Assembly (NCBI GenBank): GCA_964405295.1
Contig: CAYONI010000002.1
Coordinates: 1-59,132 of the forward strand
Length of the DNA: 59,132 nucleotides
Reading direction: 5' to 3'
Source: an uncultured Methanosarcinales archaeon
Lineage (GTDB): Archaea > Nanobdellota > Nanobdellia > Woesearchaeales > CAYZNE01
Shown here: positions 13,195 through 56,108 of the stretch, in pieces
Layout: the number at the start of each line of letters is the position of its first letter
How positions within the stretch are numbered: position 1 is the first letter of the stretch
Position numbers and translations under genes: made by a program
Notes under the pieces: model-generated
Database searches by the model: none
The model's input: only the letters and a program-made list of their open reading frames with translations
What the model was told of the DNA's origin: nothing

Positions 13195-13214
13195 ATTTAA
13201 TTATTTAAAGCTAA

Positions 13215-13973: not shown

Positions 13974-14057
13974 TTCTGCATCACCTTCTGTTTGAGGTCT
14001 TTCTATGGGGTATTTAAACCTTTTGGAAATGATGTTGTTTTTGATTCTCAATAAATC

Positions 14058-26418: not shown

Positions 26419-26423
26419 TCTAA

Positions 26424-27935: not shown

Positions 27936-27976
27936 CTTAAATTCTCACCACTATTATACAAAGATTAAACTAATAA

Positions 27977-40081: not shown

Positions 40082-40476
40082 TTCTTTTTTTCTTCCTTTT
40101 TTCTAAACTTGTCGAAAGTTTCCATTAGATCAATAACATACTTTCCTTCTTCAAGTTTGTAAATTAATGGATGGTCTTTTTTGAAAAGATTGATGAGGTC
40201 AAGTTCATACTTGCCTGGTTTAAGAATGTTAATTGATTCAATATCAAGAACAATAGGTATTTCTTTGTCTATATCAGAACCCATTATGTCATAGATATCG
40301 CTTTCTATTTGTTCTTTTTCTCTAGAAGTAAGTTCTTCAACAACTTTTCTTTTTTTCTCAAGAGCCTCTTTCTTGATATAGAAAAACATTTTTCCGCCAC
40401 ACTCAGTGCAACCTTTTAGAATAACTTTTGTTCCGTCATCGTACACTTTTCCGCATTTAACACATTGGTGTGGCAT
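40078..40476 (-). CDS. oapC: Zn-ribbon protein (DUF2072, OapC)
   Basis: MPHQCVKCG...KGCTECGGKMF...ESINILKPGKYELDL. Confidence 0.88.
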   Translation of the reverse strand: MPHQCVKCGKVYDDGTKVILKGCTECGGKMFFYIKKEALEKKRKVVEELTSREKEQIESDIYDIMGSDIDKEIPIVLDIESINILKPGKYELDLINLFKKDHPLIYKLEEGKYVIDLMETFDKFRKKEEKKN

Positions 40477-40485
40477 TTTAGATAA

Positions 40486-40860
40486 TTATTTACGTCTTAT
40501 TTTTTTCTTTGCACCCATAGCAAAAAGTTGTATTTTCCCTGGATCTTGTTTTATCTCTTTAATTATTGTTGCAGGACCAATTATTGTAAATCCACTCTCT
40601 TCTCTGAACAAAATTTTCATTAGTCCTTTTTTGAATTTATTAACTTTTTTTGGTGTGATTGTTCCTATCTCAATTCCCTTGAATTTTTTATCAATAGATT
40701 CCATTGTTCTTCGGATAAGTTCTGCTTCTTCTTTGCTTTTGAGACGGCCTTCAAGAAGAACAATATTCTCATTTTTTACAATTCTTAAAAGTTTTTTAAC
40801 TCTCTGTTCAGAACTCAGTGGGTGTATTTCACTATGTGGTATAAACTGTAATGTTAACAT
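40486..40860 (-). CDS. oapB: DUF2073 family protein (OapB)
   Basis: IVLLEGRL...EEAELI..TM...FKGIEI...GFTIIGPA. Confidence 0.88.
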   Translation of the reverse strand: MLTLQFIPHSEIHPLSSEQRVKKLLRIVKNENIVLLEGRLKSKEEAELIRRTMESIDKKFKGIEIGTITPKKVNKFKKGLMKILFREESGFTIIGPATIIKEIKQDPGKIQLFAMGAKKKIRRK

Positions 40861-40874
40861 TTTTTCTCACTTCT

Positions 40875-41504
40875 CTATACTAATTTGAAAATTGCATCAT
40901 ATAATTCATCAATGTGTTTACCATATTTTGCACTGATTCCAAGCACTTCATATTGAGGAAATGCTGATTGTAATTTCTTCATTTTTGATTTCTTAAGATC
41001 TGTCTTATTGCCAACAACTAGAACAGGGATTTTTCTTGCCTGTAAGTTCCCAATGATAGTTATATTAACTTGGCTATATGGATCTATTGTGCTATCAAGA
41101 ACTACAATAACTGCATCCATTTCATCAAGCCATTTAATTGCATCAATAACTCCTTTAGTTGCTTCTTTAGCTCTCTCTTTAGCTTTCTTTTCCTTCAGAC
41201 CAGTTTTCAGAAATTCTTCGTAATCAATTTTAGTAGCAATACCTGGAGTATCAACAAGGTTGAATTTTAACTCTCTACCAGCTTTGTTCTTAATAACTAC
41301 TTCTTCTTTAACTTGAATTTCTCTTGTCTCGTGAGCCATGCTAGAAACACTGCCCATTTCTTCACCAAGCCAATCTTTACAGATTCTATTAGCTAAAGTT
41401 GTTTTTCCACCATTTGGAGGCCCGTAAAGACCTAATTTTATTTTTTTCTTTTTCTTGAATAAGCCTCTTATAAGCCTTTTAAAAAAGAATTTCAATCCTG
41501 CCAT
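40875..41504 (-). CDS. oapA: Era-like GTP-binding protein (OapA)
   Basis: GPPNGGKTT, HETR, DTPG, EATKGV and NKTD; gene order with DUF2073 and DUF2072. Confidence 0.9.
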   Translation of the reverse strand: MAGLKFFFKRLIRGLFKKKKKIKLGLYGPPNGGKTTLANRICKDWLGEEMGSVSSMAHETREIQVKEEVVIKNKAGRELKFNLVDTPGIATKIDYEEFLKTGLKEKKAKERAKEATKGVIDAIKWLDEMDAVIVVLDSTIDPYSQVNITIIGNLQARKIPVLVVGNKTDLKKSKMKKLQSAFPQYEVLGISAKYGKHIDELYDAIFKLV

Positions 41505-41688: not shown

Positions 41689-42267
41689 TTATGCTGCAAG
41701 CATCAAAGGCAGAGAATACAGCATTAAAGCTATGATTCCTGCAATTATGTAGATGGTTTTGTTCCATGCCCAAACTTTCTGGCCATCAAATCTAGGTAGA
41801 GGCAGCATATTGAACACTGCAAGAACTGCATTTATGAAATAGATGTACTGAAATATCACAAAGCTAGAAACAAAGGTTAGGCTAAAAAAGATTATTGCAA
41901 CTATTATATTAGAGAAAGGACCGGCAAAAGCTATCATCCCATTTTTCTTGGGATCAATTCTGTTTTGACTTAGTATGTGAACTGCTCCGGGTGCAGCAAT
42001 TATAAAGCCAAAAAAGCTCAAAATAATTGTCATCCATAGCATTCCTTTGTTTGCTCTGAATTCTGCTATGTATTTGAATTTTTGTGCAACAAATTTATGA
42101 CTTACTTCATGGATTACAAAGCTAAGAGTCATTACTACAAACATAAGTGGTAGTATGGCCAGGATGTTAATGTTAAATCCTGCAAATAATATTGTGAATG
42201 CAATGCTCAACATTATATCTGCGTACAATAATTCTTTTAGTTCTATTCTCGAAAATTTTAGTTTCAT
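41689..42267 (-). CDS. Site-2 protease (peptidase M50)
   Basis: HEVSH, AAPGAV, AGPFSN and FNMLPLPRFDG. Confidence 0.92.
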   Translation of the reverse strand: MKLKFSRIELKELLYADIMLSIAFTILFAGFNINILAILPLMFVVMTLSFVIHEVSHKFVAQKFKYIAEFRANKGMLWMTIILSFFGFIIAAPGAVHILSQNRIDPKKNGMIAFAGPFSNIIVAIIFFSLTFVSSFVIFQYIYFINAVLAVFNMLPLPRFDGQKVWAWNKTIYIIAGIIALMLYSLPLMLAA

Positions 42268-42347
42268 TTTGTTAGCTCACCTTAGGGCAGTAAAAGTAGT
42301 AAACCTTTGAATAAACTTTATAAAAACCATTCCTTAATTTAAATGTT

Positions 42348-42479
42348 ATGGTTAAGTTCAATAAAAGGGCTGAAGGATCAGAAGCAATTATGGGTTATAA
42401 TGTTAAGTATATTCTGATTTTTTTAACATTTTTAATTTTATCTTATTTAATAGCTAAAGCAATTGGGATTATAGGTTAA
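42348..42479 (+). CDS. Micro class III-signal (pilin-like) peptide, 43 aa
   Basis: MVKFNKRA|EGSEAIMGYNVKYILIFLTFLILSYLIAKAIGIIG*; TATA-like TTTATAAA about 30 nt upstream; stop abuts the next ATG. Not in the ORF track. Confidence 0.7.
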   Translation: MVKFNKRAEGSEAIMGYNVKYILIFLTFLILSYLIAKAIGIIG

Positions 42480-43415
42480 ATGAAATTTAAAAACGCGATG
42501 GTAAAAAGGGAGTTGGTTGGTTGGATAATTTTTCTTGCTATTTTCATTTCAATAATTTTTGTTGTCACGATAATGGTAGAAAAGCAGAAAGCTGCAGCAG
42601 GAAATCTTGCTTGTCAAACACAAATGGCTGTTGCTGCAAAAGGAAATCCAATAGGTTTCAGTGCATGCCATTCCTATAGAATAGAATTTGATAAAGATGC
42701 TGCAATAAAATATGACATGTATCAGGATGATGCAGAGGTTTACAAGTATAAGTATTCTGATGTTCTAAATAAATTAAAAGTAAGAAGTCCTGAGCTAGAT
42801 GATTTAAAGATAAGTAAAAACGAAATAATTCCTGAAGAAATAATTTATTATATTCTTGCAGAAGAAATGAAGCTATGTGATTTAACTTATAATATTGGAA
42901 GTTTTAAGACAGGAACTTATTTTTATAATTATTCTTTTGACCCAAAACTCAATGTGTGTCAAGAGTGTGCAATTTTTTTATTTAAAGAAGATTTTTTTCC
43001 AAAAACACAAAATTTTGCAAGCTTTCAAAGAATTAGCGGATTTTTTCAAGATATCAGAGTTGATAAAGAAGTAAATATTAGTTACAGGGATTTTTTCAAC
43101 AATAAATATGATGATGACTCTTTCTTGTCAGGTGTTGCGGCCATAGAAACAAACAAGGTTTACAAAATCATTTATCAATTTCGTCCTGATTTCTCTAAGA
43201 TTGAAGGACTTGGCCTTCCATCGGGAATAACTGGTAATTTTGCATTTATTCCAGTGAATGATTTATGGGAAGCTTCTAAAAATGCAATTGATAAGCTTAA
43301 GCGAAATTATACTATTCATTTAGAATCAAGTAGTTTACAATTAATAGATTCTGAGAACAGTATTAATAATTGTGATCTTAATTTGCTTTTATTGCCAAAT
43401 GCAATTTTAATTTAA
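42480..43415 (+). CDS. Class III-signal (pilin-like) protein
   Basis: MKFKNA|MVKRELVGWIIFLAIFISIIFVV; paired Cys residues; AEEMKLC and CQEC. Confidence 0.7.
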   Translation: MKFKNAMVKRELVGWIIFLAIFISIIFVVTIMVEKQKAAAGNLACQTQMAVAAKGNPIGFSACHSYRIEFDKDAAIKYDMYQDDAEVYKYKYSDVLNKLKVRSPELDDLKISKNEIIPEEIIYYILAEEMKLCDLTYNIGSFKTGTYFYNYSFDPKLNVCQECAIFLFKEDFFPKTQNFASFQRISGFFQDIRVDKEVNISYRDFFNNKYDDDSFLSGVAAIETNKVYKIIYQFRPDFSKIEGLGLPSGITGNFAFIPVNDLWEASKNAIDKLKRNYTIHLESSSLQLIDSENSINNCDLNLLLLPNAILI

Positions 43416-43416
43416 A

Positions 43417-44445
43417 ATGAAAAAGACAAAAAAATTAATAAGGAATAAATCTGCACAATCATTAAAACTTGTTGTTCAATCAGTTATTCTTGTTGCTATC
43501 CTGGCTTCTTTAATATTTATCTTTAATCAATTAAGAGTTAAATCACAAACTGCTGTAGAAACGACAGAGTGTATTGCCTCAATTGAAGCACATGCTTCTT
43601 TTGTTGAAGCACAACTTGTTAAAACTGAAGTTATAGATGCTTCTACAGCCGGTATTGGGTCACTTTTTATAGATTCAACTGCAGATCCACCACCAATAAA
43701 GTGTGATACTAAGTTTATTAAGTCGAAATCAAAAACCAAAGAAAAAATGGAAGATGAAATAATATCTAGTGTTGTAAAAAATTGGTTTTTGTTTAAAGAG
43801 GGTAAAAAGGCATTTTATCCAGGCTTAGAAAAAAAGAATTTTTGTTTTGTTGCAGATGTAATAGAATTTAAAGAAATTCCTGAAATGGAATTGTATAGTG
43901 CAAGTATGAGGTTGCCTATGAACCAAATGTTAAAAACATATTCTGATTCTGAAACTGTTCTTGAGTATTTTGATGAATCTTGGAAAAACGATGATAGTAT
44001 ATTTGAAAGAAATTTTGGTTCTACATATAAAAGCTTTTTAGCATATTACCAAATTTATTATCCTGGAAAACTTTCCAGAGAAGAATTAGATGATAACGCA
44101 AAGATTAGTATTCTTCAAACTTATTTTCAGGATCATTCTTGGTTTAAAAAAGCTAATTTAGATCAATATGTTGGAACTTCACAAACGTCTCAAATGTTTG
44201 TTTTTAAAATTTTTCAATCTTTCCTTAATAATTTAGATGTTTCTTCTTTCAAAGCTCCTCCTGCAAACAATGTTCCTTACGCAGTAATATTTTTCCAAAC
44301 TCATGATTATCCTTCAAATCTTGCAACTATTGTTGGTGATGAATTTTATCCTTTTATATTCTCTGCAATCATGGTAATTCCTTACACAGAAGATGCAATG
44401 AGTCAAATTCAGTGCGATTATATGCCTGTTGAGTTTCAGAATTAG
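43417..44445 (+). CDS. Class III-signal (pilin-like) protein, probable paralog of 42480-43415
   Basis: RNKSA|QSLKLVVQSVILVAILASLIFIF; similar C-x2-S/Q...C-x-T/S...C layout. Confidence 0.72.
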   Translation: MKKTKKLIRNKSAQSLKLVVQSVILVAILASLIFIFNQLRVKSQTAVETTECIASIEAHASFVEAQLVKTEVIDASTAGIGSLFIDSTADPPPIKCDTKFIKSKSKTKEKMEDEIISSVVKNWFLFKEGKKAFYPGLEKKNFCFVADVIEFKEIPEMELYSASMRLPMNQMLKTYSDSETVLEYFDESWKNDDSIFERNFGSTYKSFLAYYQIYYPGKLSREELDDNAKISILQTYFQDHSWFKKANLDQYVGTSQTSQMFVFKIFQSFLNNLDVSSFKAPPANNVPYAVIFFQTHDYPSNLATIVGDEFYPFIFSAIMVIPYTEDAMSQIQCDYMPVEFQN

Positions 44446-44481
44446 AAATTTTTATAAGTAATAAAGTATAAGGTTGTTATT

Positions 44482-44622
44482 ATGTCAAAATTAAGATTTT
44501 CAAAAAAAGCCCAAGGCACTCTTGTATCTCAAGTTCCTGATTGGGTAATGATGGTTGCATTTTTGTTATTAGCAATCTTTATTGTTATTGTAATACAGCG
44601 TTTAATGGTTGCTTCAGTTTAG
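44482..44622 (+). CDS. Micro class III-signal (pilin-like) peptide, 46 aa
   Basis: MSKLRFSKKA|QGTLVSQVPDWVMMVAFLLLAIFIVIVIQRLMVASV*; TATA-like TTTATAA upstream. Not in the ORF track. Confidence 0.75.
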   Translation: MSKLRFSKKAQGTLVSQVPDWVMMVAFLLLAIFIVIVIQRLMVASV

Positions 44623-44636
44623 GTATTAGGTATAAG

Positions 44637-45488
44637 ATGAATAAGTTTACTATTTATAAAAATAACAAGAAAGCGTCTGAAGTAAATTTTTTAGCTATAG
44701 GAATATTGTTAGTTATAGGATTATTTGTTGGTTTTGCTGTTTATAATTATAGTAAGGACACTATTAGTTCTATCTTGTCAAGTATAAGTTTAGAGTTTAA
44801 ATCCTATTTTCCAGACAAATATGAATATACTCCTGACCAGTATGTTGATGAACATATTAAAGGTAATATTTATTCATACATTTATATTAATGGGAATGCA
44901 GATAGAAAAGTTACCACTGTTACAGATTTTAATGTAGGCTTAGGAACTACTTTTGCAGGATTTAAGGATGTTGTTTCTAGTGGTTGCAATCCTGGATCAG
45001 AATTTCCCGGTTCGCTAAGTAGAAGCGGATGCCATATTTTAATTGCAGAAGATGATTCTTGGCTTGGTGGAGGAGGAGATGATTGTGCAGCAAGTCTTTA
45101 TCGGCCTGATGTTAATGGGTTGATTTTTTATAATAAACCCCCTGTGGTTTCTGAAGATAAAAAACAATCAAAAGAAAAATTAAAAAAAAGTTGTCTTTCT
45201 GGTTATGGTTGTCAAAATGATGCCTTAAATTTACTTTACCATTTTTATGCTCAGGAAGATGAAGGTATTTTAACTAATGATTATTTTGATAAATCTCTTA
45301 TTTGTGGTTCACCAAGATTAGGAGTTTATATGTGGTTTAAGTGTGATTCTAGTTTCTCAAGTAAAGCTCCCGATAATAAAATTGAAATTTATGGAGAAAA
45401 AGATAAGCTTCAATACCAATGTCTGTGTGCTTCTAATGGAGATTTTTGTGCTTGGAGTCTCTTTGAAGAAGAAGCTAGTTCAACTTAA
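44637..45488 (+). CDS. Class III-signal (pilin-like) Cys-rich protein
   Basis: Start moved to ATG 44637: MNKFTIYKNNKKA|SEVNFLAIGILLVIGLFVGFAVY. Confidence 0.75.
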   Translation: MNKFTIYKNNKKASEVNFLAIGILLVIGLFVGFAVYNYSKDTISSILSSISLEFKSYFPDKYEYTPDQYVDEHIKGNIYSYIYINGNADRKVTTVTDFNVGLGTTFAGFKDVVSSGCNPGSEFPGSLSRSGCHILIAEDDSWLGGGGDDCAASLYRPDVNGLIFYNKPPVVSEDKKQSKEKLKKSCLSGYGCQNDALNLLYHFYAQEDEGILTNDYFDKSLICGSPRLGVYMWFKCDSSFSSKAPDNKIEIYGEKDKLQYQCLCASNGDFCAWSLFEEEASST

Positions 45489-45592
45489 ACAGCAATAATG
45501 TTCTCCTAAATAGCTTTGAAGAATACAATACATTTATATATAATAAATATAGAAATTTATATATTATCATTTTTAATTAATTCGAGGTGTAT

Positions 45593-45859
45593 ATGATGAA
45601 TAACGTAAAAGCGCAAGGTCTAAGTATGAGTACAATTATTATTGCAGCAATTTCCTTGTTAGTATTAGTTCTTCTTGCAACATTTTTACTTAAAGGAAGT
45701 GGGCAGTTTAGTGAAGGAACTGAGTGTGAAGCAATAGCTGAAGGTGCAGTTTGTGATACTAGTTGCTCAGAATTATCTGACTATGATGGTATAACTTATA
45801 TTGACAGGGGACAAACTACTTGCCCAGACGATTATACTTGTTGTGTTCCAGTAAATTAA
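45593..45859 (+). CDS. Small pilin-like protein with a six-Cys head (candidate major pilin)
   Basis: VKA|QGLSMSTIIIAAISLLVLVLL; own TATA-like element and SD GAGGTG; C-x8-C-x3-C-x18-C-x5-CC. Confidence 0.8.
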   Translation: MMNNVKAQGLSMSTIIIAAISLLVLVLLATFLLKGSGQFSEGTECEAIAEGAVCDTSCSELSDYDGITYIDRGQTTCPDDYTCCVPVN

Positions 45860-45884
45860 GTTTATATTTTTCGAGGTGTATAAC

Positions 45885-46145
45885 ATGGGAAATTGGAATA
45901 AAAAAGCTGTAAGTCTAACTTTTAACACAGTTATAATTGCAGTATTATCGATAATTGTTTTAGTGGTATTACTATATTTTTTGTTGAATTCTTCACAAGG
46001 TGCAAATGATGGAACTGCTTGCCCATTAAAAGGAGGAATTTGTTTAGATGAGTGTAGTGGAATATATGCAGATGATTCAATAGCTTATGAAGATGATTTA
46101 TGTCAAAATGATAAATATTGTTGTTTGCCAGGTTCAGGTGAGTAA
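45885..46145 (+). CDS. Small pilin-like protein with a six-Cys head
   Basis: NKKA|VSLTFNTVIIAVLSIIVLVVLL; SD GAGGTG; C-x6-C-x3-C-x15-C-x5-CC. Confidence 0.8.
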   Translation: MGNWNKKAVSLTFNTVIIAVLSIIVLVVLLYFLLNSSQGANDGTACPLKGGICLDECSGIYADDSIAYEDDLCQNDKYCCLPGSGE

Positions 46146-46148
46146 TTA

Positions 46149-47963
46149 ATGAGATCGAGAAGTATGATTCTAAAGTCTAATAAAAAAGCAGTGTCTGCTC
46201 TTATTTGGGGGGTGGTTATTGGTGCTATTATTACGATTTTTATGGTGTTTTTTGCTGGTAGTTTGTATAAAAAAATTTTTTCTGGAACAGAAACAATTAC
46301 CGATTGTAAGACTCAACAAGGCACTTGTTATTCTACTTGTGATGGAGATCATGCATATCAAGTCTTTGGTGCAACAGGTTGTAAAAAAGATGAGGTTTGT
46401 TGCAGAGGGAAAATGCTATCTGATGCAGTAGGAGATGATCCTAATGTAAGTAATCCTAATAATGCTTGTTCAGATTATGATATTTGTTATGTTTCAACTC
46501 ATCCGGATGATAGTTGGAAAGTTGCAAAGAATTGGTATAATGGTGATCAAGAAAGAAATTGTTATTATCTAGTTCCTCAATATAATAAAGTGGAACCTAA
46601 ACCTGCGATTAATGGTCAGGTTTTATCTAAAGGTTATGAAAATGTAAATTTTACTGCTTCTGCAACTGCAAAATGCTGCTTGATTCAGATTGGTGGAATA
46701 AATAAATACTATGCCAATAATTATTTTGGTTATGCTTATTTTAATGGCGATGATAAAGTGACTTCAGGATATATTCCTTATAATGAAACAACAGGAACTT
46801 GCACTGCAACAATAAATTTTAATTTTGCAGAAGATCCTCCTAATCCTAAAGTTTTTAATCAAGAGGTTTGGAAAGAGTCTTTTGACGATAGAACTTTCTG
46901 TGCTCAAGAAGATGCTTTTGGCATGGCTAAAAAAGCAATGTTTAAAGTTGACTTTGTTTACTGGAATAAACCTTGTAAACCAGAACCAGGTTTCTTAGAT
47001 TCAAGTGCAAATAGTGTTGCAACGCTGTTTGATGTTGCTAAGTTTGCTCATGATAAATATGGTTATAATGATGATCCAACAGGTTCTGGCAATGAACCTG
47101 GAAATGAAAACTATTTTGTTTATTTAAGAAATTCTGTGAAACCACGTCTTGGAGGGGTGGGAGACCCGGTTTGCACTACATTTTGTGAAAAAGTTACTAG
47201 AGGTTCTGACACTCCTTCAGGTGAAGGTGACTCTTGTGAGTTTGTTAGTTTTATAGAAGTAGATGCGGGAGAAGATTGTCCTGCAAGTAAGTTCGAGCAG
47301 GTTAGTAAAACTGATGACTTATTCTATAAACAATTTTATGATGACCAGATTTTTGTTGAAGGTGGAGATGTAAAAGATTATTTTGTTGTGGATCCAAGTA
47401 AAAAGATTTGTTTAATTGGTGCTTCTGGTCCTGAATTCTTTCCAAATGATTTTGCTCCAGGTGTATGCCAAGGTATATACTATCTAAATCCTAATAAAGA
47501 CACTCCAACTGAACCCTGTGAATTAGATAAGTGTTCTTCAGTTAAATCTCAAGAATATTGTAATAACATACAAAGAAATTTAGATGACTATACTTATCAA
47601 TTAGATTTCAGACTTTATCCTGATGAATATTGTGATGATTTAAAATGTTTTTATGGAACAGATGGATTGTTTACTTTTAATAAATGTAGAAGTTGTGGTG
47701 TAATATCCTCTTGTTCAGGTTATAGTAAAGAAGACGCTTGTGCAATTAATCCTTGTAAATTAGGTATTTCTCCTTCCTTGACAGGTGGATGTTTTTGGAG
47801 CACTAAAGGGATCGACAAATGTAAACAGTGCCCTGGGAGCTGTGAAATGCTACTTAATGATGATTGTATGTCTGGTGAAGATTGTAATTTACATTGTGCA
47901 ATAAGTTCAGATACTGGAACTTGTGTTACAGATACTTCGTTCCAAGAGAATACTCTTGTTTAA
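46149..47963 (+). CDS. Large class III-signal Cys-rich protein (adhesin-like)
   Basis: NKKA|VSALIWGVVIGAIITIFMVFF; six-Cys head followed by a Cys-rich C-terminus. Confidence 0.75.
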   Translation: MRSRSMILKSNKKAVSALIWGVVIGAIITIFMVFFAGSLYKKIFSGTETITDCKTQQGTCYSTCDGDHAYQVFGATGCKKDEVCCRGKMLSDAVGDDPNVSNPNNACSDYDICYVSTHPDDSWKVAKNWYNGDQERNCYYLVPQYNKVEPKPAINGQVLSKGYENVNFTASATAKCCLIQIGGINKYYANNYFGYAYFNGDDKVTSGYIPYNETTGTCTATINFNFAEDPPNPKVFNQEVWKESFDDRTFCAQEDAFGMAKKAMFKVDFVYWNKPCKPEPGFLDSSANSVATLFDVAKFAHDKYGYNDDPTGSGNEPGNENYFVYLRNSVKPRLGGVGDPVCTTFCEKVTRGSDTPSGEGDSCEFVSFIEVDAGEDCPASKFEQVSKTDDLFYKQFYDDQIFVEGGDVKDYFVVDPSKKICLIGASGPEFFPNDFAPGVCQGIYYLNPNKDTPTEPCELDKCSSVKSQEYCNNIQRNLDDYTYQLDFRLYPDEYCDDLKCFYGTDGLFTFNKCRSCGVISSCSGYSKEDACAINPCKLGISPSLTGGCFWSTKGIDKCKQCPGSCEMLLNDDCMSGEDCNLHCAISSDTGTCVTDTSFQENTLV

Positions 47964-47978
47964 TAGATTTAGAATAAA

Positions 47979-48302
47979 ATGAAAATGGACAAAAAAGCAT
48001 TTGATGTTGTAATTTCAAAATATCTCATAATTTTTGTAACAATTATTATTATAATTGCTATTGCTATTCCTTTATATAGTGTTAATAAAGATGCTCTTTC
48101 CTTAGGGGTCTCTGTGTTTGATGCTAATGTAAACTGTGGAGAAGTTCTTGCAGGTTTATATGAAACAAAGTGTTTTTCTAGTGAACACCTTGTTAATTGT
48201 TATCAGATAGGATGGCTATCTCATATGGAAACAGGAAAAGCAAAAGGGTGTTTTGATGACGAAATGTGTTGTAAAAGAGAATTGCCGAATAATATTAATT
48301 AA
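47979..48302 (+). CDS. Small pilin-like protein with a six-Cys head
   Basis: DKKA|FDVVISKYLIIFVTIIIIIAIA; ...GCFDDEMCC. Confidence 0.75.
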   Translation: MKMDKKAFDVVISKYLIIFVTIIIIIAIAIPLYSVNKDALSLGVSVFDANVNCGEVLAGLYETKCFSSEHLVNCYQIGWLSHMETGKAKGCFDDEMCCKRELPNNIN

Positions 48303-48307
48303 TTAAA

Positions 48308-49033
48308 ATGTTAAGATTAGAATATAATAAAAAAGCTCAAACGCAATCGTTTATTATGATATTAGCTATTATAATTCTTATTGGAGTTGCTTCGATAACA
48401 ATTCTCTCCTCCTTGGATAAAGTAAAAGAGGGTGCAAAATCCACTTGGGATGATTTTAATGATTGTTATAAAATTCCTAATGGCTTTTGTATAAGTCCTA
48501 ATGATTATTGTAGGGATTATGATAGTTCTATAGATTCTTTAGGAATATCTTGTAAAGAAGATGATAATCCTGGAAAGACTGCAGATATGAAATGCTGTAC
48601 TGCAATAGATCCGAAGAAAAAAATTACTCTTGAACTTTATAATGGAGATAAATATATTGATAGGCTTGCAGGAAGAGCACAAGATTATATTTCAACAGGA
48701 GGGTTAGATAAAGTTAAGATTACTAGTATAGACGTTAATTATCCTGAATATCTTTATTCAAAAAAAATTAATAATAAGACAACTATGTTTAAGCTTGAAT
48801 TAGTTCCTCTTAAGACAACAACTAAGTGCTATTCTGGAACCGAACCACTTCTTGTTAATTGTAAGTATCATGATGGTGGAGATTTCTCATTTCCCTCATG
48901 TGGCGGTCCTGGAACAAGTGAGTTTAATCTTGATATTGGTGATTGCCGGTTTAAGCTAACTGTTTATAATGAGAAAGGCGAAGATGTTGTCGAAATCTTT
49001 ACTAAAGAATTTGACTTTCCTGTAAAAATATAA
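48308..49033 (+). CDS. Class III-signal protein with a six-Cys head and a C-terminal beta domain
   Basis: NKKA|QTQSFIMILAIIILIG; DCYKIPNGFC...YC...SC...KCC. Confidence 0.75.
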   Translation: MLRLEYNKKAQTQSFIMILAIIILIGVASITILSSLDKVKEGAKSTWDDFNDCYKIPNGFCISPNDYCRDYDSSIDSLGISCKEDDNPGKTADMKCCTAIDPKKKITLELYNGDKYIDRLAGRAQDYISTGGLDKVKITSIDVNYPEYLYSKKINNKTTMFKLELVPLKTTTKCYSGTEPLLVNCKYHDGGDFSFPSCGGPGTSEFNLDIGDCRFKLTVYNEKGEDVVEIFTKEFDFPVKI

Positions 49034-49102
49034 GGCCTACCTTGCTTTTTTTATAACAATCTTTTTAAACAATACTTCTTAAATTTATATTGAGGTTAGA
49101 GG

Positions 49103-50806
49103 ATGGTTCTTAGAGCTAAAAAAGCACAAACTGACAGTATGAAGAAGGCCCTTTTAGAACTTCTTGTATTTTCAATTTTTTTGGTAGTATTTATATCTAT
49201 TCTGTCTTCCTTATGGAATAATTTGAAAGGAACATCACTTGAAGAACAAGCAGGAATGCAGTTTAATGTATTTATTTCTAATCTTAAATCAATGTCTTAT
49301 ACTCAGTCAGAATATAGTTTATCTTATTCTCAATTGTTAGTCCCTGCAGGTTATTATCTTGTTGCATTTCCTGCTGCTGCACAAAACGTGAGATATCATT
49401 ATGTTAATGATAATGGCCAGGTTACAGATAAGATTAAAGAGATATTTAGGCCAAAAGATTGCAATAAAGAGTCTGAACAATCATGTCTTTGTTTATATAA
49501 TAAGCAACCTGGAAATGTAGAGGGTGATGCAAATAAGAATATAGTTGTGTGTAAACAGATACCTGTTAAAAAGTTTGTTGCGAATCACATAAATGAAGAA
49601 GAGTTAATGCTCCCAGGTAGTTCAAAGAATTTTTCTTTTACTGAAAATGACTATTCAGTTTTTTTAGGTGAAAGTTTTCCAAAATCTAAATTTAGTTCAG
49701 ATATAAGAGGGTTTATTGAAGGAAATGATACATATGCTATTGGTGAAAGAACTCAGAATTTAGGGTTTTATGATTCTTCCATTGGTGATGTTCCATTGCA
49801 TGATCTTGTTATAAAAATAAAACAATCGGTTCCAATCCCCTTTTATGTTGAATTGTTAAAGGTTGGTGATGATTCTTCAATGGTAGTTTTTCCTTATTCT
49901 TATGCTTTATTTAATAGAAAATATTTTTTGATGAATTACGATGGCCAAGAATCATGTAATAATAAGAATATTCATACAGTTTTTGATGTTCCTGGAGAAC
50001 CAGGAAATTTTTCTTATTGTGAGCAAACAGCTTCAGGTCTTGTAGAATCTGAAGATAGAATAGGTTTTTGTCCGCGTGGAACTATCCCTGAAATTTGTGC
50101 TTGTGGTGGAGGAACAACCTCTTTTTTTTCAAGAGCGGGAAATAATGTTATTTTCCCAAGAGCAATAAGTTATGGTAATTGCGCTAAATTTACTGATGTG
50201 GAGTTTACAACTCTTGTGAATTTCCCACCAGAGTATTGTAACGAGATACCTGACGCAGCTTTAACATTTTGCCTAATATATGAAGATAAGTATGCATGCG
50301 CATCTGATGTTTGTGATACAGGAAATTTATGTTCTTGGGTTAGTTCACCCGGTTCAGGATCTTGTGTTTCTACTTGTAATCAAATAACTTCTTGTTCTGA
50401 TTATGATTTAACTTCTTGTGTTGATGACACTTGTGGCATTAGTGAGCTGGGATGTGTTTTAGGAATTAATAATGATCAAGAAGAATGTATGGACTTATGT
50501 AATAGTATAACTTCTTGTTCTGATTATGAAGGAAGATTTGAGTGCGGAGATGATTTATGTGAAATCTATCCTGCAGGAACAAGCACAGTCAATAAGTGTG
50601 AATATAATGAAGTAAATGCTCAATGTTCTACCATCATAATAGATGTGTGTAATAGTGTGGTAGAATGTTCTAATTATATAACCAAAGCAGAGTGTGAAGC
50701 TGATGCTTGTAATTTGTATTCAGGAATATATGAGAGTTGTGTCTATGATGATAATACTGATTTGTGTTCTGTAGTTGCAACTTATGAAAATTTAATTACA
50801 TCTTAG
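49103..50806 (+). CDS. Large class III-signal protein with C-terminal Cys repeats
   Basis: AKKA|QTDSMKKALLELLVFSIFLVVF; about four CNxIxxCxxY...CxxDxC repeats. Confidence 0.75.
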   Translation: MVLRAKKAQTDSMKKALLELLVFSIFLVVFISILSSLWNNLKGTSLEEQAGMQFNVFISNLKSMSYTQSEYSLSYSQLLVPAGYYLVAFPAAAQNVRYHYVNDNGQVTDKIKEIFRPKDCNKESEQSCLCLYNKQPGNVEGDANKNIVVCKQIPVKKFVANHINEEELMLPGSSKNFSFTENDYSVFLGESFPKSKFSSDIRGFIEGNDTYAIGERTQNLGFYDSSIGDVPLHDLVIKIKQSVPIPFYVELLKVGDDSSMVVFPYSYALFNRKYFLMNYDGQESCNNKNIHTVFDVPGEPGNFSYCEQTASGLVESEDRIGFCPRGTIPEICACGGGTTSFFSRAGNNVIFPRAISYGNCAKFTDVEFTTLVNFPPEYCNEIPDAALTFCLIYEDKYACASDVCDTGNLCSWVSSPGSGSCVSTCNQITSCSDYDLTSCVDDTCGISELGCVLGINNDQEECMDLCNSITSCSDYEGRFECGDDLCEIYPAGTSTVNKCEYNEVNAQCSTIIIDVCNSVVECSNYITKAECEADACNLYSGIYESCVYDDNTDLCSVVATYENLITS

Positions 50807-50814
50807 TTATTAAA

Positions 50815-51843
50815 ATGAAAAAAAGAATTTTTGGAAATAAAAAGGGTAGTGAATCTTTTATGATGTCAATGTTATATGACATGTTCTTTTCTATAATTAT
50901 TCTCTTAACTTTATTAGCTTTTGTTAATTCTGTTAATTCAGGAACTTATTATTGGAGGCAATACTATGTTGAAGACATTAGTTTGACTCTGTCTTTGATT
51001 GAAGGTGTTCCTGAAGACTTAAGTATAAATTATGTTGTAACTCATAGTAAGGCTTTGTCAAGTGGACAAACAGGGTTGTTTGTTGATATAACACCTGGTT
51101 ATGTTGCTATTTTTTCAAGAAATGAGTCTGAATATAAGAATATTAAACCCTTTCTGACAAAATTAACTTCTAATTTAGTAATGTTTTCTCCATTGGAGGC
51201 TATTTCCATTTTTAAATCAGGCGATCAAATTAGTTTTTCATCAGATTCGGTTCTTAGATGTAGAACTTTATCAAGAGATAAAACTGAATTTGTTTTAACA
51301 AAGATATATCTTCCAGAAGATGACTTTCTTCCTATAAAAATACAAAATGTTGTTAAAGAAACAGAAAATCAGATTGTAGCAGAATATTCTTCTGAGATTG
51401 GAAGTTATAGTATATTATTATCTGAATTATTTTCCAAGAATATTGGGGATCCTATTGTTAAAGACGACAATGATCTGGCTATTATTGTAATCTTTAAAGA
51501 TGCAGATAAAAATGCAATTTCCATAAAACATTCTACAACTGGAAATTCTGAATTAGCAAATAACATCGCGTGCAACCTGTTTTCTCAATTAGATTTTATG
51601 TATTCTGAACTTGAACAGTATGTTGAGCAAGATGTTAATCTTTTTATTAGGCCTGCATCCAGTGATGAGGTGGCCGATTATTCCCAGGAAAATAATGCGG
51701 TTATTTTAATTGAGTTTCAATCTCCAAATATAGAAGAATTTTATATTAGTAATAGAATTTTTGCAAAAGTAATTGTTGATAATATTAAAAAGTCAACAAG
51801 TGAAATAGAACAAGAAAAGCTTACAGAATTATTAACTGTTTAA
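50815..51843 (+). CDS. Class III-signal protein with a degenerate Amidase_3-like C-terminal domain
   Basis: NKKG|SESFMMSMLYDMFFSIIILL; DLAIIVIF...NSELANNIACNL...AVILIEF...IFAKVIVDNI. Confidence 0.6.
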   Translation: MKKRIFGNKKGSESFMMSMLYDMFFSIIILLTLLAFVNSVNSGTYYWRQYYVEDISLTLSLIEGVPEDLSINYVVTHSKALSSGQTGLFVDITPGYVAIFSRNESEYKNIKPFLTKLTSNLVMFSPLEAISIFKSGDQISFSSDSVLRCRTLSRDKTEFVLTKIYLPEDDFLPIKIQNVVKETENQIVAEYSSEIGSYSILLSELFSKNIGDPIVKDDNDLAIIVIFKDADKNAISIKHSTTGNSELANNIACNLFSQLDFMYSELEQYVEQDVNLFIRPASSDEVADYSQENNAVILIEFQSPNIEEFYISNRIFAKVIVDNIKKSTSEIEQEKLTELLTV

Positions 51844-51844
51844 T

Positions 51845-52408
51845 ATGAGAAAAGTTATCCGGAATCGTGGGAATGGGAAAAAAGCATCAACTATAAGTTA
51901 TATGGCCATGTTTCTTTACAGAATTATTTTTGTTGCTGCATCAATTTATTTATTTGTTCTTTTTGCAAATATGTTACTCTCTCCATTTCCAGATATCTAT
52001 GAAGCTCGTGCAGAATTGTTAATGGGCAGAGTTCTTTATTCCGAAGCGATACACTATACTGATGATTCAATAGGACGAGTTTATAATAATATTATTGATT
52101 TAGATAAATTAAATTCTTTTAATACCACAACAAAGCTTGAGCGTTATTTTAGAAATGAGCTGTATCATCCTTCTAGGACAAATTTACTTGTTTTTAATAT
52201 TACTGCCACCTATTGGAATGGGACAAATTTTGAAAGAAGTAGTTTTGTTTCTAACACAACACAGTATAAATTATTAAATCCCAAGGCTAGGTTTGAAGGC
52301 AAGGGTGCGGTTACAGGACTTCATAGAGTTTTTGACTCAAGTTGTATGATTAATTCAACAATTATTCCCTGTAATGTAGATTTGAAAGTTTTAATTCCTA
52401 ATTCATAA
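51845..52408 (+). CDS. Class III-signal (pilin-like) protein
   Basis: GKKA|STISYMAMFLYRIIFVAASIYLFVLFA. Confidence 0.72.
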   Translation: MRKVIRNRGNGKKASTISYMAMFLYRIIFVAASIYLFVLFANMLLSPFPDIYEARAELLMGRVLYSEAIHYTDDSIGRVYNNIIDLDKLNSFNTTTKLERYFRNELYHPSRTNLLVFNITATYWNGTNFERSSFVSNTTQYKLLNPKARFEGKGAVTGLHRVFDSSCMINSTIIPCNVDLKVLIPNS

Positions 52409-52409
52409 A

Positions 52410-53054
52410 ATGACTAAAAAGATATTTAGAAAAAATAGAAAAGGTTTAGCCTTCTTTGTTCTATTAGATTTATGGTCTATAATTGCAGTGGTAGGATTTC
52501 TTATTTTGCTATTAATATATATTAATTTTACAGAAAAAGTTCAAGAAAAAAGAATTGCAGATAAGATTGTTGGATCAAATTTTCCACATTATATTATCTC
52601 TTCATTTGAAAGTGAAGTTGTTGATTTTAAAGGGTGTGCTGGAATACCTGAAAATATAACCCGGACAGAATTTTTAGTTTGGCTAGATTATAATAAAGAA
52701 TTTATGTCTGATAAAGAACTTGAGAATTGTGTTAATCCATTTAGGCATAGCTTGTTAAAATTTACTGAACCACAAGTTAAAGAGAATTTTGGTGCAGCCT
52801 TAACGCATTTTGCATTTACTGTGCAAGGTGAAAGAATTGTTGAGAGTTCAACTCTTAATATGTTTATAGAATCCAAACTTGCTTATGAAATTCCTGCTAA
52901 AAATGAGAATATTCAGGTTAGTTTTGGTTTTACTGCGGAATCTTTAACAGATGTTATACAAGATAAAATAGAAGAATCTTTATCAGGAGTTGCCAAGTTT
53001 GTTGGTGGTAAGATAACAGAGTTTGCAATTAATATTATTAAGGATAGTATATAA
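52410..53054 (+). CDS. Class III-signal (pilin-like) protein
   Basis: NRKG|LAFFVLLDLWSIIAVVGFLILLL. Confidence 0.72.
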   Translation: MTKKIFRKNRKGLAFFVLLDLWSIIAVVGFLILLLIYINFTEKVQEKRIADKIVGSNFPHYIISSFESEVVDFKGCAGIPENITRTEFLVWLDYNKEFMSDKELENCVNPFRHSLLKFTEPQVKENFGAALTHFAFTVQGERIVESSTLNMFIESKLAYEIPAKNENIQVSFGFTAESLTDVIQDKIEESLSGVAKFVGGKITEFAINIIKDSI

Positions 53055-53073
53055 AATGATTTTAAAGAATAAA

Positions 53074-53098
53074 CACAAAAATCAAGATTTTTGGTCAT
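53074..53098 (+). repeat. Hairpin-GGTCAT dispersed element
   Basis: CACAAAAATC-AA-GATTTTTG-GTCAT. Confidence 0.65.
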
Positions 53099-53131
53099 TT
53101 TGTTTTAGTTTTATAGTTGTAGGATATTAAG

Positions 53132-54406
53132 ATGTTAAAAATAAAACAAAATAAAAAAGGGAAAGTACTCATGGTTTCTATAGCTTTGTCGCTTATAGGA
53201 TTATTGATTTATTTACTTATTGCAACTAGCAATTTAGATGGTCCCACTATTGAAAATTTTGGCCAAATACAAAAACAAACAATTAGAGCATTAAATCAAA
53301 AAGATACTTTATTACTCTATGTTGATACTGCTACAGAACTTGCAAAAAGGGATGTTTCTCAAAAAATTTTAGCAGACAATGCAGGTTTCTATAAAGAAAT
53401 AGATTCATCTGATCCTAATAGTGATGTAACTGGTTGTGGATCTCACGTCTACAATTTGCTTTCAACTACAACTGGTAAATCTTGTGTTAGTGATTATGAT
53501 TATGGTAAAGAATATTTGTTTTCATTCAAAGATGAATTAGGAAAATATATTTCTAGAGAAGAAAATTTGAAAGGAGTTGAGTTTAATCATTTTGATATAG
53601 ATAATGGAAGTATTATTCCAAAAAATCTTGAACAAGTTTATCTTCTTATAACAAACAAAGATTTTGATTTTGATTTTTTACCTGAAGGGGGAATAATTAA
53701 TCTTGCCATTAAATCTAAGTATGGTGATGATGTTGCAAAAAAGATTTTAAATATTGATCTTTCTAAAGATCCTTTTAAGAGCATGGTACCAGGTGATTGT
53801 TCTTTGCATGTTAATTGGTTAATTAAAACTGCATATCAGGATGAAGATAATTTCAGAGGTATTGATTGTTTCCCAAATCACGCATGGGGAATTGCAGCGT
53901 GTTATCTTAGTAAATCACAAAGAACTCCTGAGATCTCAAGAGTTGTTTATTCAGGACCAGGATTATCTTTTGATGAATTATTCTTAGAAGATAAACTGCT
54001 TAAAGAAGGAGATATTTTATTTACATCATCAAAAACAACTTGGTGTAAATGGACAGGATATAATGAATATAGTAATGATAATATGTGTGGATATGCTAAA
54101 GGAACACTGGATCCTGATCGTTATTTAAGAACTGATGGAGAAATAGGGTTTTGTGTTGAAGATACTATTGAACTATCAGACAATCCTCTTTATTGTGATT
54201 TTAGTGAGTTTGGAATTGAATCTGAAAATTTTCCAATAATTACGCACATATTTATTTATCTTGGACTTGATAGAACAGGAAAACATGTAATTGGGAATTT
54301 GTATGGTGCACATGCAAATGATAAAGATTTAGAAATATTTTTAGGTACATATGGTAAAAGTGATGGTGTTAGGATGATTGTTAGACCAGACTACCCAAAA
54401 ATTTAA
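53132..54406 (+). CDS. Class III-signal protein with a C-terminal NlpC/P60 (papain-like) peptidase-like domain
   Basis: NKKG|KVLMVSIALSLIGLLIYLL; GDCSLHV...NHAW...LKEGDILF...THIFIYLG. Confidence 0.65.
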   Translation: MLKIKQNKKGKVLMVSIALSLIGLLIYLLIATSNLDGPTIENFGQIQKQTIRALNQKDTLLLYVDTATELAKRDVSQKILADNAGFYKEIDSSDPNSDVTGCGSHVYNLLSTTTGKSCVSDYDYGKEYLFSFKDELGKYISREENLKGVEFNHFDIDNGSIIPKNLEQVYLLITNKDFDFDFLPEGGIINLAIKSKYGDDVAKKILNIDLSKDPFKSMVPGDCSLHVNWLIKTAYQDEDNFRGIDCFPNHAWGIAACYLSKSQRTPEISRVVYSGPGLSFDELFLEDKLLKEGDILFTSSKTTWCKWTGYNEYSNDNMCGYAKGTLDPDRYLRTDGEIGFCVEDTIELSDNPLYCDFSEFGIESENFPIITHIFIYLGLDRTGKHVIGNLYGAHANDKDLEIFLGTYGKSDGVRMIVRPDYPKI

Positions 54407-54410
54407 TAAA

Positions 54411-55904
54411 ATGGTAAATAAAAGTATTAATAAGAAACTGAGTTTGTTTTTAGTAATTTTGTTTTTGTTGATATTTCTTGCAAATTTTGTTCTTGCAGGA
54501 GAACAGGCAAAATTAAACCGGTTTAAAGATTCTGAAACAAAGTTAATTTTAACAAATGTGAATAGATACAATCTTATAATAGAAAGATATGCAGATGAGT
54601 TTGGTGTTCCTAAAACTCTTTTGCAAGCTTTAATTGGTGTTGGTAAAACTGCAGGAATTTTGGATCCCTATGATGTTTATAGTGCAGGGGGGGCTATTGG
54701 TTTAATGAATTTAGTACCTTTTTATTCTGATGGAACAAATATTCATTATTTTGATTGTTTAGAATCTGGTTGTATGAATGATGAAGTTGAATATCTTGAT
54801 AGAGAACATCTTACTGAGAATCGAAAAAAAGTAAAATATGAATACACAAATCCTCATAATTCTATTTGTTGTGCAACGTATATTTTAGAAAAGAAATCTC
54901 ATACATCTATAATTTACCCTGGTGAGGAAAGTAAGTGTAAAGATTCAAGAACCCAGGTAACTTATGATGGTTGGGAAGCTGCAGTTAGAAAATTCAATCC
55001 GTTTTTCTGCGGTGATGATAATGATATTTATTTTGTAGAAAGAGTTATGCAGTTAAATTCTTCTTTTACAAAGTTTACTAAGGGTAATATAATTAATTAT
55101 GGTTTGCTAAAATTTGTTCCTTCATTTAAGATTAAAGCTCCAAGGTTTCCAAAAATTTATGAAAATTTAAGTGATATAATTTCAAATTTACAAGAAACAG
55201 AATCTGAAGCAGGTGTTAGCCTTAAGCTGACAAATATTGGTTCTAAATATAATGTTACTTTTAGAAAATTTTGTGAAGAACCAGAAGTAAATATTTTTAA
55301 TTCTATTTATGATAATTTTGTTAATGCTGTTGAGTTTGATTATCCTGAATGTAAGTATCTTGTTGCAGATAAGATTCCTTTTTCAGGCCACATGGAAATG
55401 CAAACTTTATTATTTGTGCATGATAGTACTGCTAATAAACTTAGTATAAAGAATAATCTTTCTTTAGATTTATTTAGAAATTATGAATTAACTGTTCCTG
55501 AAAACTTTTTCTTAGGATTTGATAATTTAACAATTGTTCAAGTTAAGCCTTCTTATTCAATGGAATACCAAATTAATAATTTTAATCGTCCTGATTCATC
55601 ACCTTTAATTGGGATAGAAAACATATTTTTTGTTAATGATTATGCCTCAGATGTTTCTGAGCTAGTGTTTTATAAAAATGTTAGTAATGTTGGAGTTTAT
55701 TATAATACATTTGGTCAGGAAATTAATTTAACTATTAGTCCACTACTTGATTGTGATAGTTCATTAGATAATTATAGATTGAAATATTTTACTTGTCTTG
55801 ATACAGGTGAAAGAGAAGAAGTTTACGACTGGGTGTCTGGTAAATGGGAAGAGTCAGCCGAAACGATTAAAATAAAGCTTGCATTTGCTCTTAAAAGAAA
55901 ATAA
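54411..55904 (+). CDS. Secreted protein with an SLT lytic-transglycosylase-like domain (catalytic Glu missing)
   Basis: Signal peptide (VLA|G); YNLIIERYADEFGVPKTLLQALI, SAGGAIGLMNL, NPHNSICCATYIL, WEAAVRKFN and YFVERVM. Confidence 0.65.
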   Translation: MVNKSINKKLSLFLVILFLLIFLANFVLAGEQAKLNRFKDSETKLILTNVNRYNLIIERYADEFGVPKTLLQALIGVGKTAGILDPYDVYSAGGAIGLMNLVPFYSDGTNIHYFDCLESGCMNDEVEYLDREHLTENRKKVKYEYTNPHNSICCATYILEKKSHTSIIYPGEESKCKDSRTQVTYDGWEAAVRKFNPFFCGDDNDIYFVERVMQLNSSFTKFTKGNIINYGLLKFVPSFKIKAPRFPKIYENLSDIISNLQETESEAGVSLKLTNIGSKYNVTFRKFCEEPEVNIFNSIYDNFVNAVEFDYPECKYLVADKIPFSGHMEMQTLLFVHDSTANKLSIKNNLSLDLFRNYELTVPENFFLGFDNLTIVQVKPSYSMEYQINNFNRPDSSPLIGIENIFFVNDYASDVSELVFYKNVSNVGVYYNTFGQEINLTISPLLDCDSSLDNYRLKYFTCLDTGEREEVYDWVSGKWEESAETIKIKLAFALKRK

Positions 55905-56108
55905 TTTTATTTACTATAGTTTCAATTTGACTGGAAGCTTTGAGAAAATATATATTACTATTCGACTTTCCTATAATATGGCCTCCTCTGCAACTTAAAG
56001 GATGTGATACTCAACTAAAAAGGAGGTCGTCCAAAAAAGGTTAAACTTACAATATTAAGGTTGTAGTATTAGCTTTTTTGAGAATAATAATTATAAAAGG
56101 TGATATTC

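Follow-up and report, generated by a model that had tools for sequence, protein, structure and literature searches.

In Gram-positive conjugation systems, hydrolases of the PrgK, CwlT, and TraG types combine M23, SLT, and CHAP domains behind an N-terminal membrane helix and open the producer's own wall for the type IV secretion channel. In the Sulfolobales bindosome, class III signals are borne by sugar-binding proteins associated with BasABC, and the assembly genes can be located elsewhere. Bacterial modular type IV pilins, such as PilB (vWA) and PilC (lectin) from S. sanguinis, are composed of a small class III pilin module and a bulky graft; the PilB graft has been modeled at the pilus tip, and one of the many modular-pilin architectures carries a peptidase (PMC8179133). 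The same layout is displayed by p53132 and its relatives, p53132 being the last pilin-like product of the locus described here, an array of 15 pilin-like genes followed by a gene for a secreted protein. The array lies in an archaeal window of 59,132 nt (contig C2, bases 1-59132; the window is the whole stretch of DNA that was analyzed), and proteins are designated by the window position at which their open reading frame (ORF) starts, so that p53132 is the product of the ORF starting at 53132.

M23, amidase, and similar domains occur in murein-less archaea, with the Nanoarchaeota as the most prominent case, and the enzymes have been read as anti-bacterial weapons; Woldo and Danwoldo from Halogranum salarium are secreted archaeal peptidoglycan hydrolases killing bacteria (Strock et al., 2025; PMC12352652). 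The survey in that paper required a known wall-binding domain and scored Sec and Tat signals only, and the terms pili, pilin, type IV, and class III are absent from its main text. Regarding Woesearchaeota, large lytic murein transglycosylases (GH23/SLT) have been linked to a hypothesis of 'vampiristic' predation (Vigneron et al., 2022; PMC9723730, citing the AR20 genome of Castelle et al., 2015). In that paper, 'pili', 'pilin', and 'type IV' do not occur, and a pilin-like N-terminus, operon context, and hydrolase swapping are not described. The large module-bearing proteins presented below are probably the same genes as these transglycosylases. Literature searches for an archaeal pilin-hydrolase link, covering few subscription journals, retrieved no description. 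Archaeal hydrolases, Woesearchaeota transglycosylases, and bacterial modular pilins are known separately, and their joining in archaea was not found published.

In comparison with the PilB type, the carrier here is an archaeal-type module without a Pfam pilin match, the grafts, murein hydrolase domains, are interchangeable from one genome to another and occur in a murein-less organism, and up to 15-20 distinct pilin-like genes can be found per array. Unlike Woldo and Danwoldo, the hydrolase domains here stand on a prepilin-like carrier within a putative conserved pilin operon, which is chromosomal and widely conserved instead of patchy. The bindosome also displays class III signals on proteins with functional domains, but its cargo is solute-binding whereas murein-active folds are found here. 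As for the conjugation hydrolases, the same series (M23 with SLT, SLT with NlpC/P60) are found behind one helix in the large proteins of the relatives; however, the producer here is murein-less, and no VirB4/VirD4-type context is seen in the array.

We favor, with somewhat better than even confidence, the reading that the locus encodes a type-IV-filament-like apparatus, the conserved terminal block of which presents murein-binding and murein-cutting modules to bacterial walls. Few DPANN archaea have a known host or known machinery for contacting it, the known hosts being archaea, and the locus would offer a concrete, conserved, and testable gene set linking these archaea to bacterial cell walls. 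It would also turn the general idea of a big Woesearchaeota lytic transglycosylase into a defined apparatus, the parts of which could be used as markers, the bacterial partner being predictable from the enzyme type.

The carrier module of p53132 and its hydrolase domains

The three window proteins on which the argument turns are the following.

50815..51843, + strand: 342-aa pilin-like carrier, leader KKG/SE, with a predicted Amidase_3-fold domain at residues ~160-331
53132..54406, + strand: 424-aa modular pilin-like protein, with a class-III module (residues 1-~175) and a probable NlpC/P60-like fold (217-421)
54411..55904, + strand: 497-aa Sec-type secreted protein, with an SLT-like domain (~45-230) and an unassigned C-terminal half

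Judging from sequence conservation, the first ~170-175 residues of p53132 are a new, conserved pilin-like module. Searched as a single sequence against 201 genomes of the order, p53132 matches in 17, two of these matches (same genus) being full-length and 14 confined to its residues ~1-140, in ORFs 206-1551 aa long. An alignment of 15 module N-termini displays, after the leader and helix, invariant G44, Q47, and G85 together with a Cys pair, C102/C118. Of 401 high-quality genomes in a sample of the phylum, 253 are matched by the module profile (E ≤ 1e-5), mostly once per genome, namely 201 of the same order (own genome included) and 52 of other orders of the same class; unpublished genomes among them are G206, G210, G592, G501, and G112. 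Among 1.84 billion, the profile matches 1679 representative clusters, 1002 of them at E ≤ 1e-10. In each of the 150 clusters listed, the match begins no later than residue 22, and a [KR][GA] motif is found in the first 35 residues of 107 of 147 module representatives.

Murein-active Pfam domains are present in 38 of 52 module-bearing ORFs (10/12, 24/30, and 4/10), namely Peptidase_M23, SLT, Amidase_2, NlpC/P60, VanY, YkuD, and 3D. The layout is of the PilB type: in these proteins the module spans residues 1-~175, with the hydrolase domain directly behind it, starting at residues ~175-300 in most of the 38; the exceptions are L098 and L108, where the sole such domain (VanY) lies far downstream of the module. 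A second sample of 75 representatives, overlapping with the first, also contains 38 with such domains, i.e., 38 of the 56 that are at least 300 aa long. Module-bearing relatives reach 1855 aa with SLT, and no Pfam domain was found in the five short module forms from other orders. GDSL is additionally present in several module proteins. In L032, L106, and L110, GDSL/SGNH acylhydrolase domains are located within the same giant proteins as murein hydrolase domains, and these could presumably be O-acetyl-peptidoglycan esterases.

Since hydrolase domains are fused to the module in most relatives, carrier and cargo are one protein. These fusions speak against a quite improbable explanation, according to which a short pseudopilus, resembling the piston of type II secretion systems (T2SS), pushes hydrolases such as p54411 through the S-layer and the pilin-like proteins never touch the target. 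Bacterial T2SS pseudopili comprise one major and four minor pseudopilins, which can be counted for such a piston, and p54411 has a Sec-type signal and no anchor. In addition, giant wall-degrading proteins of Omnitrophota adjoin T2SS/type IV pilus-like loci with small class III genes (bioRxiv 10.1101/2023.11.21.568195). A secretin-like or outer component is neither expected nor seen here.

Folds and residue states of the wall-type domains

Most of the evidence for an Amidase_3 fold in p50815 comes from its AlphaFold model (23-row alignment A4), which has a mean predicted local distance difference test score (pLDDT) of 69.3. In a VIA comparison, the top 14 rows are all Amidase_3 amidases (Z 9.9-11.7, root-mean-square deviation (rmsd) ~3 Å, 130-145 residues, model 160-331), the matches including AmiB, LytH, PlyPSA, AmiC, CD27L, CwlV, and CwlD, with the next fold group at Z ~7; the best Foldseek match is AmiP (E 1.2e-3). 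An Amidase_3 fold of the p50815 model is thereby supported. Pfam Amidase_3 (PF01520) matches one of the 23 orthologs (L077, 7.2e-13) and not the window protein at E ≤ 1. Searched with a profile of five close p50815 sequences, 82 of 401 genomes of the order contain relatives, among them the unpublished G374, G303, and G112, and the Gly at position -1 of the leader is nearly invariant across the 23 orthologs, which come from many families. Amidase_3 enzymes and their partners (AmiB-EnvC, 8c0j; LytH-ActH, 7tj4; CwlD-GerS, 7rag) are among the top matches, with the same alpha/beta fold over ~140 residues, and in relatives of p50815 an M23/LytM domain is encoded three genes 3', recalling amidase-LytM pairs. 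Unlike in these pairs, the zinc histidines are missing from p50815, which may mean exchanged or purely structural roles.

The C-terminal domain of p53132 is assigned, with good though not full confidence, to an NlpC/P60-like fold. Among 48,161 chains, VIA returned 46 rows at Z ≥ 5, of which 30 are by title wall hydrolases, i.e., NlpC/P60, CHAP, or related wall endopeptidases, autolysins, endolysins, and type VI amidase effectors. In the model, C223 (GDCS) starts helix 223-234, H372 starts strand 372-379, and N389 comes after strand 385-388; H372 and N389 are invariant in the family and C223 is kept in six of seven members (Ser in G006). DCFP (C245) was rejected as the catalytic motif, as C245 is not conserved whereas GDCS (C223) is.

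With regard to p54411, membership of the SLT family is supported by comparison of an alignment of six homologs and the G006 ortholog with known families. Pfam SLT (PF01464) matches four of these seven orthologs (best E 1.3e-9) and not the window protein at E ≤ 1, and the family profile matches the lytic transglycosylase MltC (9vi7) at E 0.018 and EmtA at E > 2. The p54411 profile (residues 47-440) also aligns directly behind the module of L084 (E 1e-21) and in four other module proteins. Because it matches this region in relatives, the usual single terminal protein appears to be split in this genus into a protein with the module and the NlpC/P60-like domain and a separate Sec-secreted SLT-like protein. 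This split and the apparent conversion of two of the three wall domains into pseudo-enzymes would be the additions specific to the window.

Several results weigh against the reading as an apparatus that acts on walls. None of the 16 cluster proteins has a relevant match in Pfam (E ≤ 1) or NCBIfam (E ≤ 0.01), and phmmer searches of PDB sequences with p53132, p54411, and p50815 gave 0 matches each at E ≤ 10, for which reason the fold claims were tested through relatives and models. The p53132 model, built from a 7-row alignment, has an overall pLDDT of 44.5, rising to 55-76 in the core (223-300 and 370-420), and its best VIA match, NlpC1 of T. vaginalis (6bim_A; rmsd 3.3 Å, 113 residues), has a Z of 7.8, which is within the range that the tool calls common. 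Foldseek found nothing at E ≤ 0.001 for this model, several NlpC/P60 entries being present in the weak list, and hhalign of the p53132 family (alignment A1) with the NlpC/P60 domains of three relatives gave a probability of 10.7%; in that weak alignment, the DCS and GDILF motifs are in register. Finally, catalytic residues are missing in the two other domains. Both zinc histidines are absent from p50815 and likewise from 22 of the 23 family members, L077 alone keeping GHGG and the second His; the zinc ligands of the Amidase_3 family being His-Glu-His, the zinc-His columns of p50815 read YLPEDDFL and IIVIFK, and the Glu of the LIEF motif is kept. In p54411 and its two closest relatives, the catalytic-Glu column (aligned to ES of MltC) is occupied by Lys, the same column being Glu in three of the seven sequences and Phe in one.

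The p53132 family has no Pfam match either (0/7 at E ≤ 1), and PDB profile searches with A1 gave 0 matches and with A5 and A6 nothing meaningful. In a set of 5.8 billion, five close relatives of p53132, six of p54411, and three of p50815 were found, so these families are narrow at full length, and a search for related loci with alignment A2 retrieved only two, both from the same genus.

A preliminary description of this DNA had assigned Amidase_3, NlpC/P60, and SLT folds to the products of 50815, 53132, and 54411, respectively. The first assignment is borne out by the VIA and Foldseek matches, and the other two are supported, that of p53132 on a low-confidence model and that of p54411 by the Pfam matches of its orthologs and the MltC profile match. 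The description further suggested that the complex binds or locally opens a bacterial wall. As far as the folds are concerned this is supported; for p50815 and p54411, binding is likelier than cutting, since key catalytic residues are lost. With the zinc histidines of p50815 and the catalytic Glu of p54411 gone, an enzymatic role is likely for no more than one of the three domains here, only the NlpC/P60-like one looking competent from its residues.

Array architecture, synteny, and assembly genes

The 15 pilin-like ORFs extend over 42348-54406 on the + strand, each starting with a basic leader that ends in Gly or Ala and continues into a hydrophobic stretch. In addition to the three listed above, the array comprises the following features.

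42316..42325, + strand: TATA-like box CTTTATAAAA, ~23-32 nt 5' of the first ATG, recognized by eye and weak in a genome of 30% GC
42348..42479, + strand: 43-aa micro pilin-like protein with a KRA leader and a single hydrophobic helix only
42480..43415, + strand: 311-aa signal-anchored protein with a K-N-A leader (not strict class III); G139 ortholog 60% identical
43417..44445, + strand: 342-aa pilin-like protein with a K-S-A leader; ortholog in G139
44482..44622, + strand: 46-aa micro pilin-like protein, KKA/QG and helix; 49-aa counterpart in G139
44637..45488, + strand: 283-aa pilin-like protein, KKA/SE; G139 ortholog 63% identical
45593..45859, + strand: 88-aa mini-pilin, a candidate for the major subunit, with a head of the 6-Cys knot type
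45885..46145, + strand: 86-aa paralog of the mini-pilin, KKA/VS
46149..47963, + strand: 604-aa protein with the same leader and 6-Cys head, then a long Cys-rich extension
47979..48302, + strand: 107-aa paralog with a Cys-knot head
48308..49033, + strand: 241-aa paralog with a Cys-knot head and a C-terminal domain
49103..50806, + strand: 567-aa pilin-like protein with C-terminal Cys-rich repeats, opening the six-gene core kept in G006
51845..52408, + strand: 187-aa conserved pilin-like protein, KKA/ST; orthologs in G139, G006, G175, G080, G098, and G128
52410..53054, + strand: 214-aa conserved pilin-like protein, RKG/LA

The preliminary description had reported these 15 same-strand, class-III-like ORFs at the same starts, a Sec-secreted protein after them, and many junctions of 0-16 nt, and each of these points was recovered. 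By eye, 13 of the 15 leaders are strict [KR][GA], about 10-11 of them KK[AG], and the other two are only K-x-A. KRA is found at 42348, K-N-A at 42480, K-S-A at 43417, VKA at 45593, RKG at 52410, and KKG at 50815 and 53132, with KKA at 44482, 44637, 45885, 46149, 47979, 48308, 49103, and 51845. A stringent script, demanding the motif and an uncharged 18-residue hydrophobic window, picks 11 of the 15 array ORFs; since it flags only 71 of 4883 ORFs of at least 40 aa genome-wide, a run of 15 leader-bearing ORFs is far beyond chance. Curated pilin and class III models (Pfam PF04021 and relatives) match none of the 16 proteins at E ≤ 1, the control being weak too: among six canonical-looking pilin candidates elsewhere, one was matched at E 9e-5 (22.7 bits, cut-off 23.7) and one at E 0.06. 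Following the array, p54411 has an n-region, an h-region, and a VLA/GEQ site, i.e., a Sec-type signal by eye.

The locus is proposed to form one operon. No opposite-strand ORF of more than 76 aa lies inside the array, and 10 of the 15 junctions measure 0-16 nt, the remaining five being 25, 36, 69, 77, and 104 nt. The TATA-like box CTTTATAAAA is a possible operon promoter by its sequence and position. Ahead of 45593 lie the longest gap (104 nt), an AT-rich, TATA-like stretch, and a ribosome site (GAGGTG).

The products of 45593, 45885, 46149, 47979, and 48308 share the leader, helix, and six-Cys knot with pairs of ~80-aa proteins from G175 and G080, the orthologs of p45593 in these genomes (~80 aa) being matched at E 1e-9 to 1e-12. 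Helix-only micro-ORFs of 41-51 aa are found at equivalent positions in the arrays of G139, G175, and G080, which represent different families. Concerning the larger products, p43417 weakly matches a 302-aa array member of G080 (E 1.7e-4), p51845 has no PDB sequence match, and the Atlas matches of p46149 (score 0.77) and p49103 are 'hypothetical' archaeal clusters only, with scores of 0.77-0.87 across the two proteins.

The synteny across relatives that the preliminary description had proposed to examine is present. In G139, from the same genus, the whole cluster lies between the same flanking genes, 14 of the 16 proteins being found by tblastn at 39-85% identity, with flanks at 83% and 94% and the two micro-ORFs kept by position. 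G006, also of the same genus, has the last six genes only, at 25-42% identity, directly 3' of an unrelated 541-aa gene. In other families, G175, G080, G128, and G098 harbor same-strand arrays of 10-20 pilin-like genes ending in a module-bearing hydrolase, onto which p45593/p45885, p50815, p51845, p52410, and p53132 map by phmmer in the same order. A mobile element or virus was rejected, given the G139 synteny with housekeeping flanks and the occurrence of the module about once per genome across the class.

The genome to which the window belongs (1.27 Mb, 98 contigs, 96.8% complete; window G+C ~30%) is marked as archaeal by RadA, Hjc, tRNA-intron endonuclease, TrmB, and the OapA/B/C origin-associated genes in the window. 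Its small size, the 0.6-2.7 Mb of the order's sampled genomes, and the labels of the nearest Atlas clusters (Nanobdellota, Woesearchaeota, or Aenigmatarchaeota, scores < 0.9) are the grounds on which we infer a small-genome DPANN-type archaeon. No Mur_ligase_M, penicillin-binding protein (PBP) transpeptidase, or FtsW/RodA was found in this genome, positive controls being obtained in 10-12 of 14 reference genomes; the producer would make no peptidoglycan, as the preliminary description had assumed. As the archaeon is without genes to make murein or pseudomurein, the target would be bacterial murein. Remodeling of an own wall was rejected, there being no Mur ligase, PBP, or SEDS match in the genome. 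Action of the wall-type domains on the own envelope or on the pseudomurein of a methanogen host is very improbable. Woesearchaeota have been proposed as methanogen partners, and the title of a same-genus record names Methanosarcinales; on the other hand, the murein-synthesis genes are missing at 96.8% completeness and the swapped domains include VanY, M15 D-Ala-D-Ala peptidases, YkuD L,D-transpeptidases, M23, and Amidase_2, the substrates of which contain D-amino acids and MurNAc, neither of which is found in pseudomurein.

The absence of assembly genes from the window and an assembly in trans, both suggested earlier, agree with the genome: T2SSE, T2SSF, and Peptidase_A24 matches are absent from contig C2 and found only on other contigs, with one Peptidase_A24 (C6:26493-27719), three T2SSE over the cut-off (C11, two on C4), and four T2SSF (C11, C4). 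C4:57161-61725 encodes a T2SSE-like ATPase of 767 aa and, after it, a polytopic membrane protein of 644 aa. Matches of this T2SSE-like type are found in six of six genomes within ORFs of 661-772 aa (open-frame lengths), among them the strongest T2SSE match of G098 (E 8e-16), and the C4 ATPase is a candidate, on sequence grounds, for the motor of the array.

Beyond the observed leaders, folds, residue states, order-wide synteny, and interchangeable hydrolase domains on one carrier, the filament reading supposes leader cleavage, polymerization, a position of the enzymes on the structure, and a bacterial target. The prepilin-like products would enter the membrane via the N-terminal helix, be trimmed after the conserved Gly/Ala by the single A24 prepilin peptidase of the genome, and be assembled by an ATPase and a platform from other loci. 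Likely bulk subunits would be the two Cys-knot mini-pilins of ~87 aa (45593 and 45885), and the conserved last block (49103, 50815, 51845, 52410, and 53132) would be a minor-pilin-type complex presenting the cell-wall modules. Within this block, the zinc-less Amidase_3-fold domain of p50815 would probably bind the glycan-peptide junction and the NlpC/P60-like cysteine peptidase of p53132 would probably cut stem peptides; beside the block, the putatively co-transcribed p54411, an SLT fold without the catalytic Glu, would probably bind glycan. The apparatus would thus attach to and locally open the wall of a bacterial partner or prey.

Other observations count in the opposite direction and bear on whether a fiber is formed at all. 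Neither an ATPase nor a platform was found in or beside the array here, and T2SSE is likewise lacking there in five of five other genomes checked. Charged residues are located between the leader and the helix in several proteins (49103 and 42480), and class III signals in archaea also serve proteins not known to form fibers, as in the Sulfolobus bindosome. According to the main alternative, a rather unlikely one that draws on these points, there is no fiber, and the class-III-type N-termini only hold the proteins in the membrane or organize them into a bindosome-like layer; the complex would be an ecto-enzyme station binding and degrading bacterial wall debris or neighboring cells and scavenging amino sugars and peptides from them. 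Subunits so numerous and so large (up to 604 aa here and 1855 aa in relatives) would sit awkwardly in a helical fiber, two of the three wall domains resemble binders more than enzymes, and the window contains a polysaccharide deacetylase gene, all of which suits such a station. It fits less well with the conservation of Gly/Ala at -1 across families, with the conserved ~80-aa mini-pilins and 41-51-aa helix-only proteins, which have no obvious use except as filament subunits, and with the fixed gene order, as in minor-pilin sets.

A wider form of the filament reading can be put forward as a tentative and doubtful hypothesis, namely that the whole class shares a contact apparatus, a filament tip with lineage-specific murein cutters (M23, SLT, amidase, NlpC/P60, VanY, and YkuD) and degenerate binders, drilling the sacculus to attach, feed, or exchange material. 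If so, DPANN archaea would systematically live as episymbionts on bacteria or prey on them, across the domain boundary, and changes of enzyme type would follow the chemotype of the host wall.

Other wall-related genes and neighbors of the array

Elsewhere in the genome, at C4:39326-40369 and on C82, there are two SLT ORFs of canonical type in which the E-S motif is intact, the one on C4 having a membrane helix and, by eye, a LysM-like C-terminal repeat. No M23 or NlpC/P60 Pfam match was found anywhere in the genome.

The genes immediately 5' of the array, at 40078-41504 on the - strand, encode OapC, OapB, and a small GTPase (Pfam) and adjoin a gene for an M50 peptidase (41689-42267). A replication origin may lie in the vicinity. 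On the 3' side, 56100-58208 (+ strand) encodes a 702-aa protein with a Pfam Beta_propel match (E 5e-161) and a lipobox-like VVAGC; it is probably outside the core, being kept in G139 but not at that place in G006.

Three consecutive large ORFs (544, 503, and 1202 aa) without a Pfam or NCBIfam match occupy 22810-29611 on the - strand, the first of them (27977-29611) having a class-III-like leader, SKKG, followed by a hydrophobic helix; from these sequence features, they are possibly a second surface-protein operon. At 11451-14066 (- strand), a 435-aa ATPase of the HerA/DUF87 type, with a Zot-like region, adjoins a 283-aa MinD/ParA-type ATPase. Finally, at 6080-6906 (- strand), two neighboring ORFs of 137-138 aa each match one half of the ArsP_1 permease model (13-135 and 162-293), corresponding to a split or two-piece permease.

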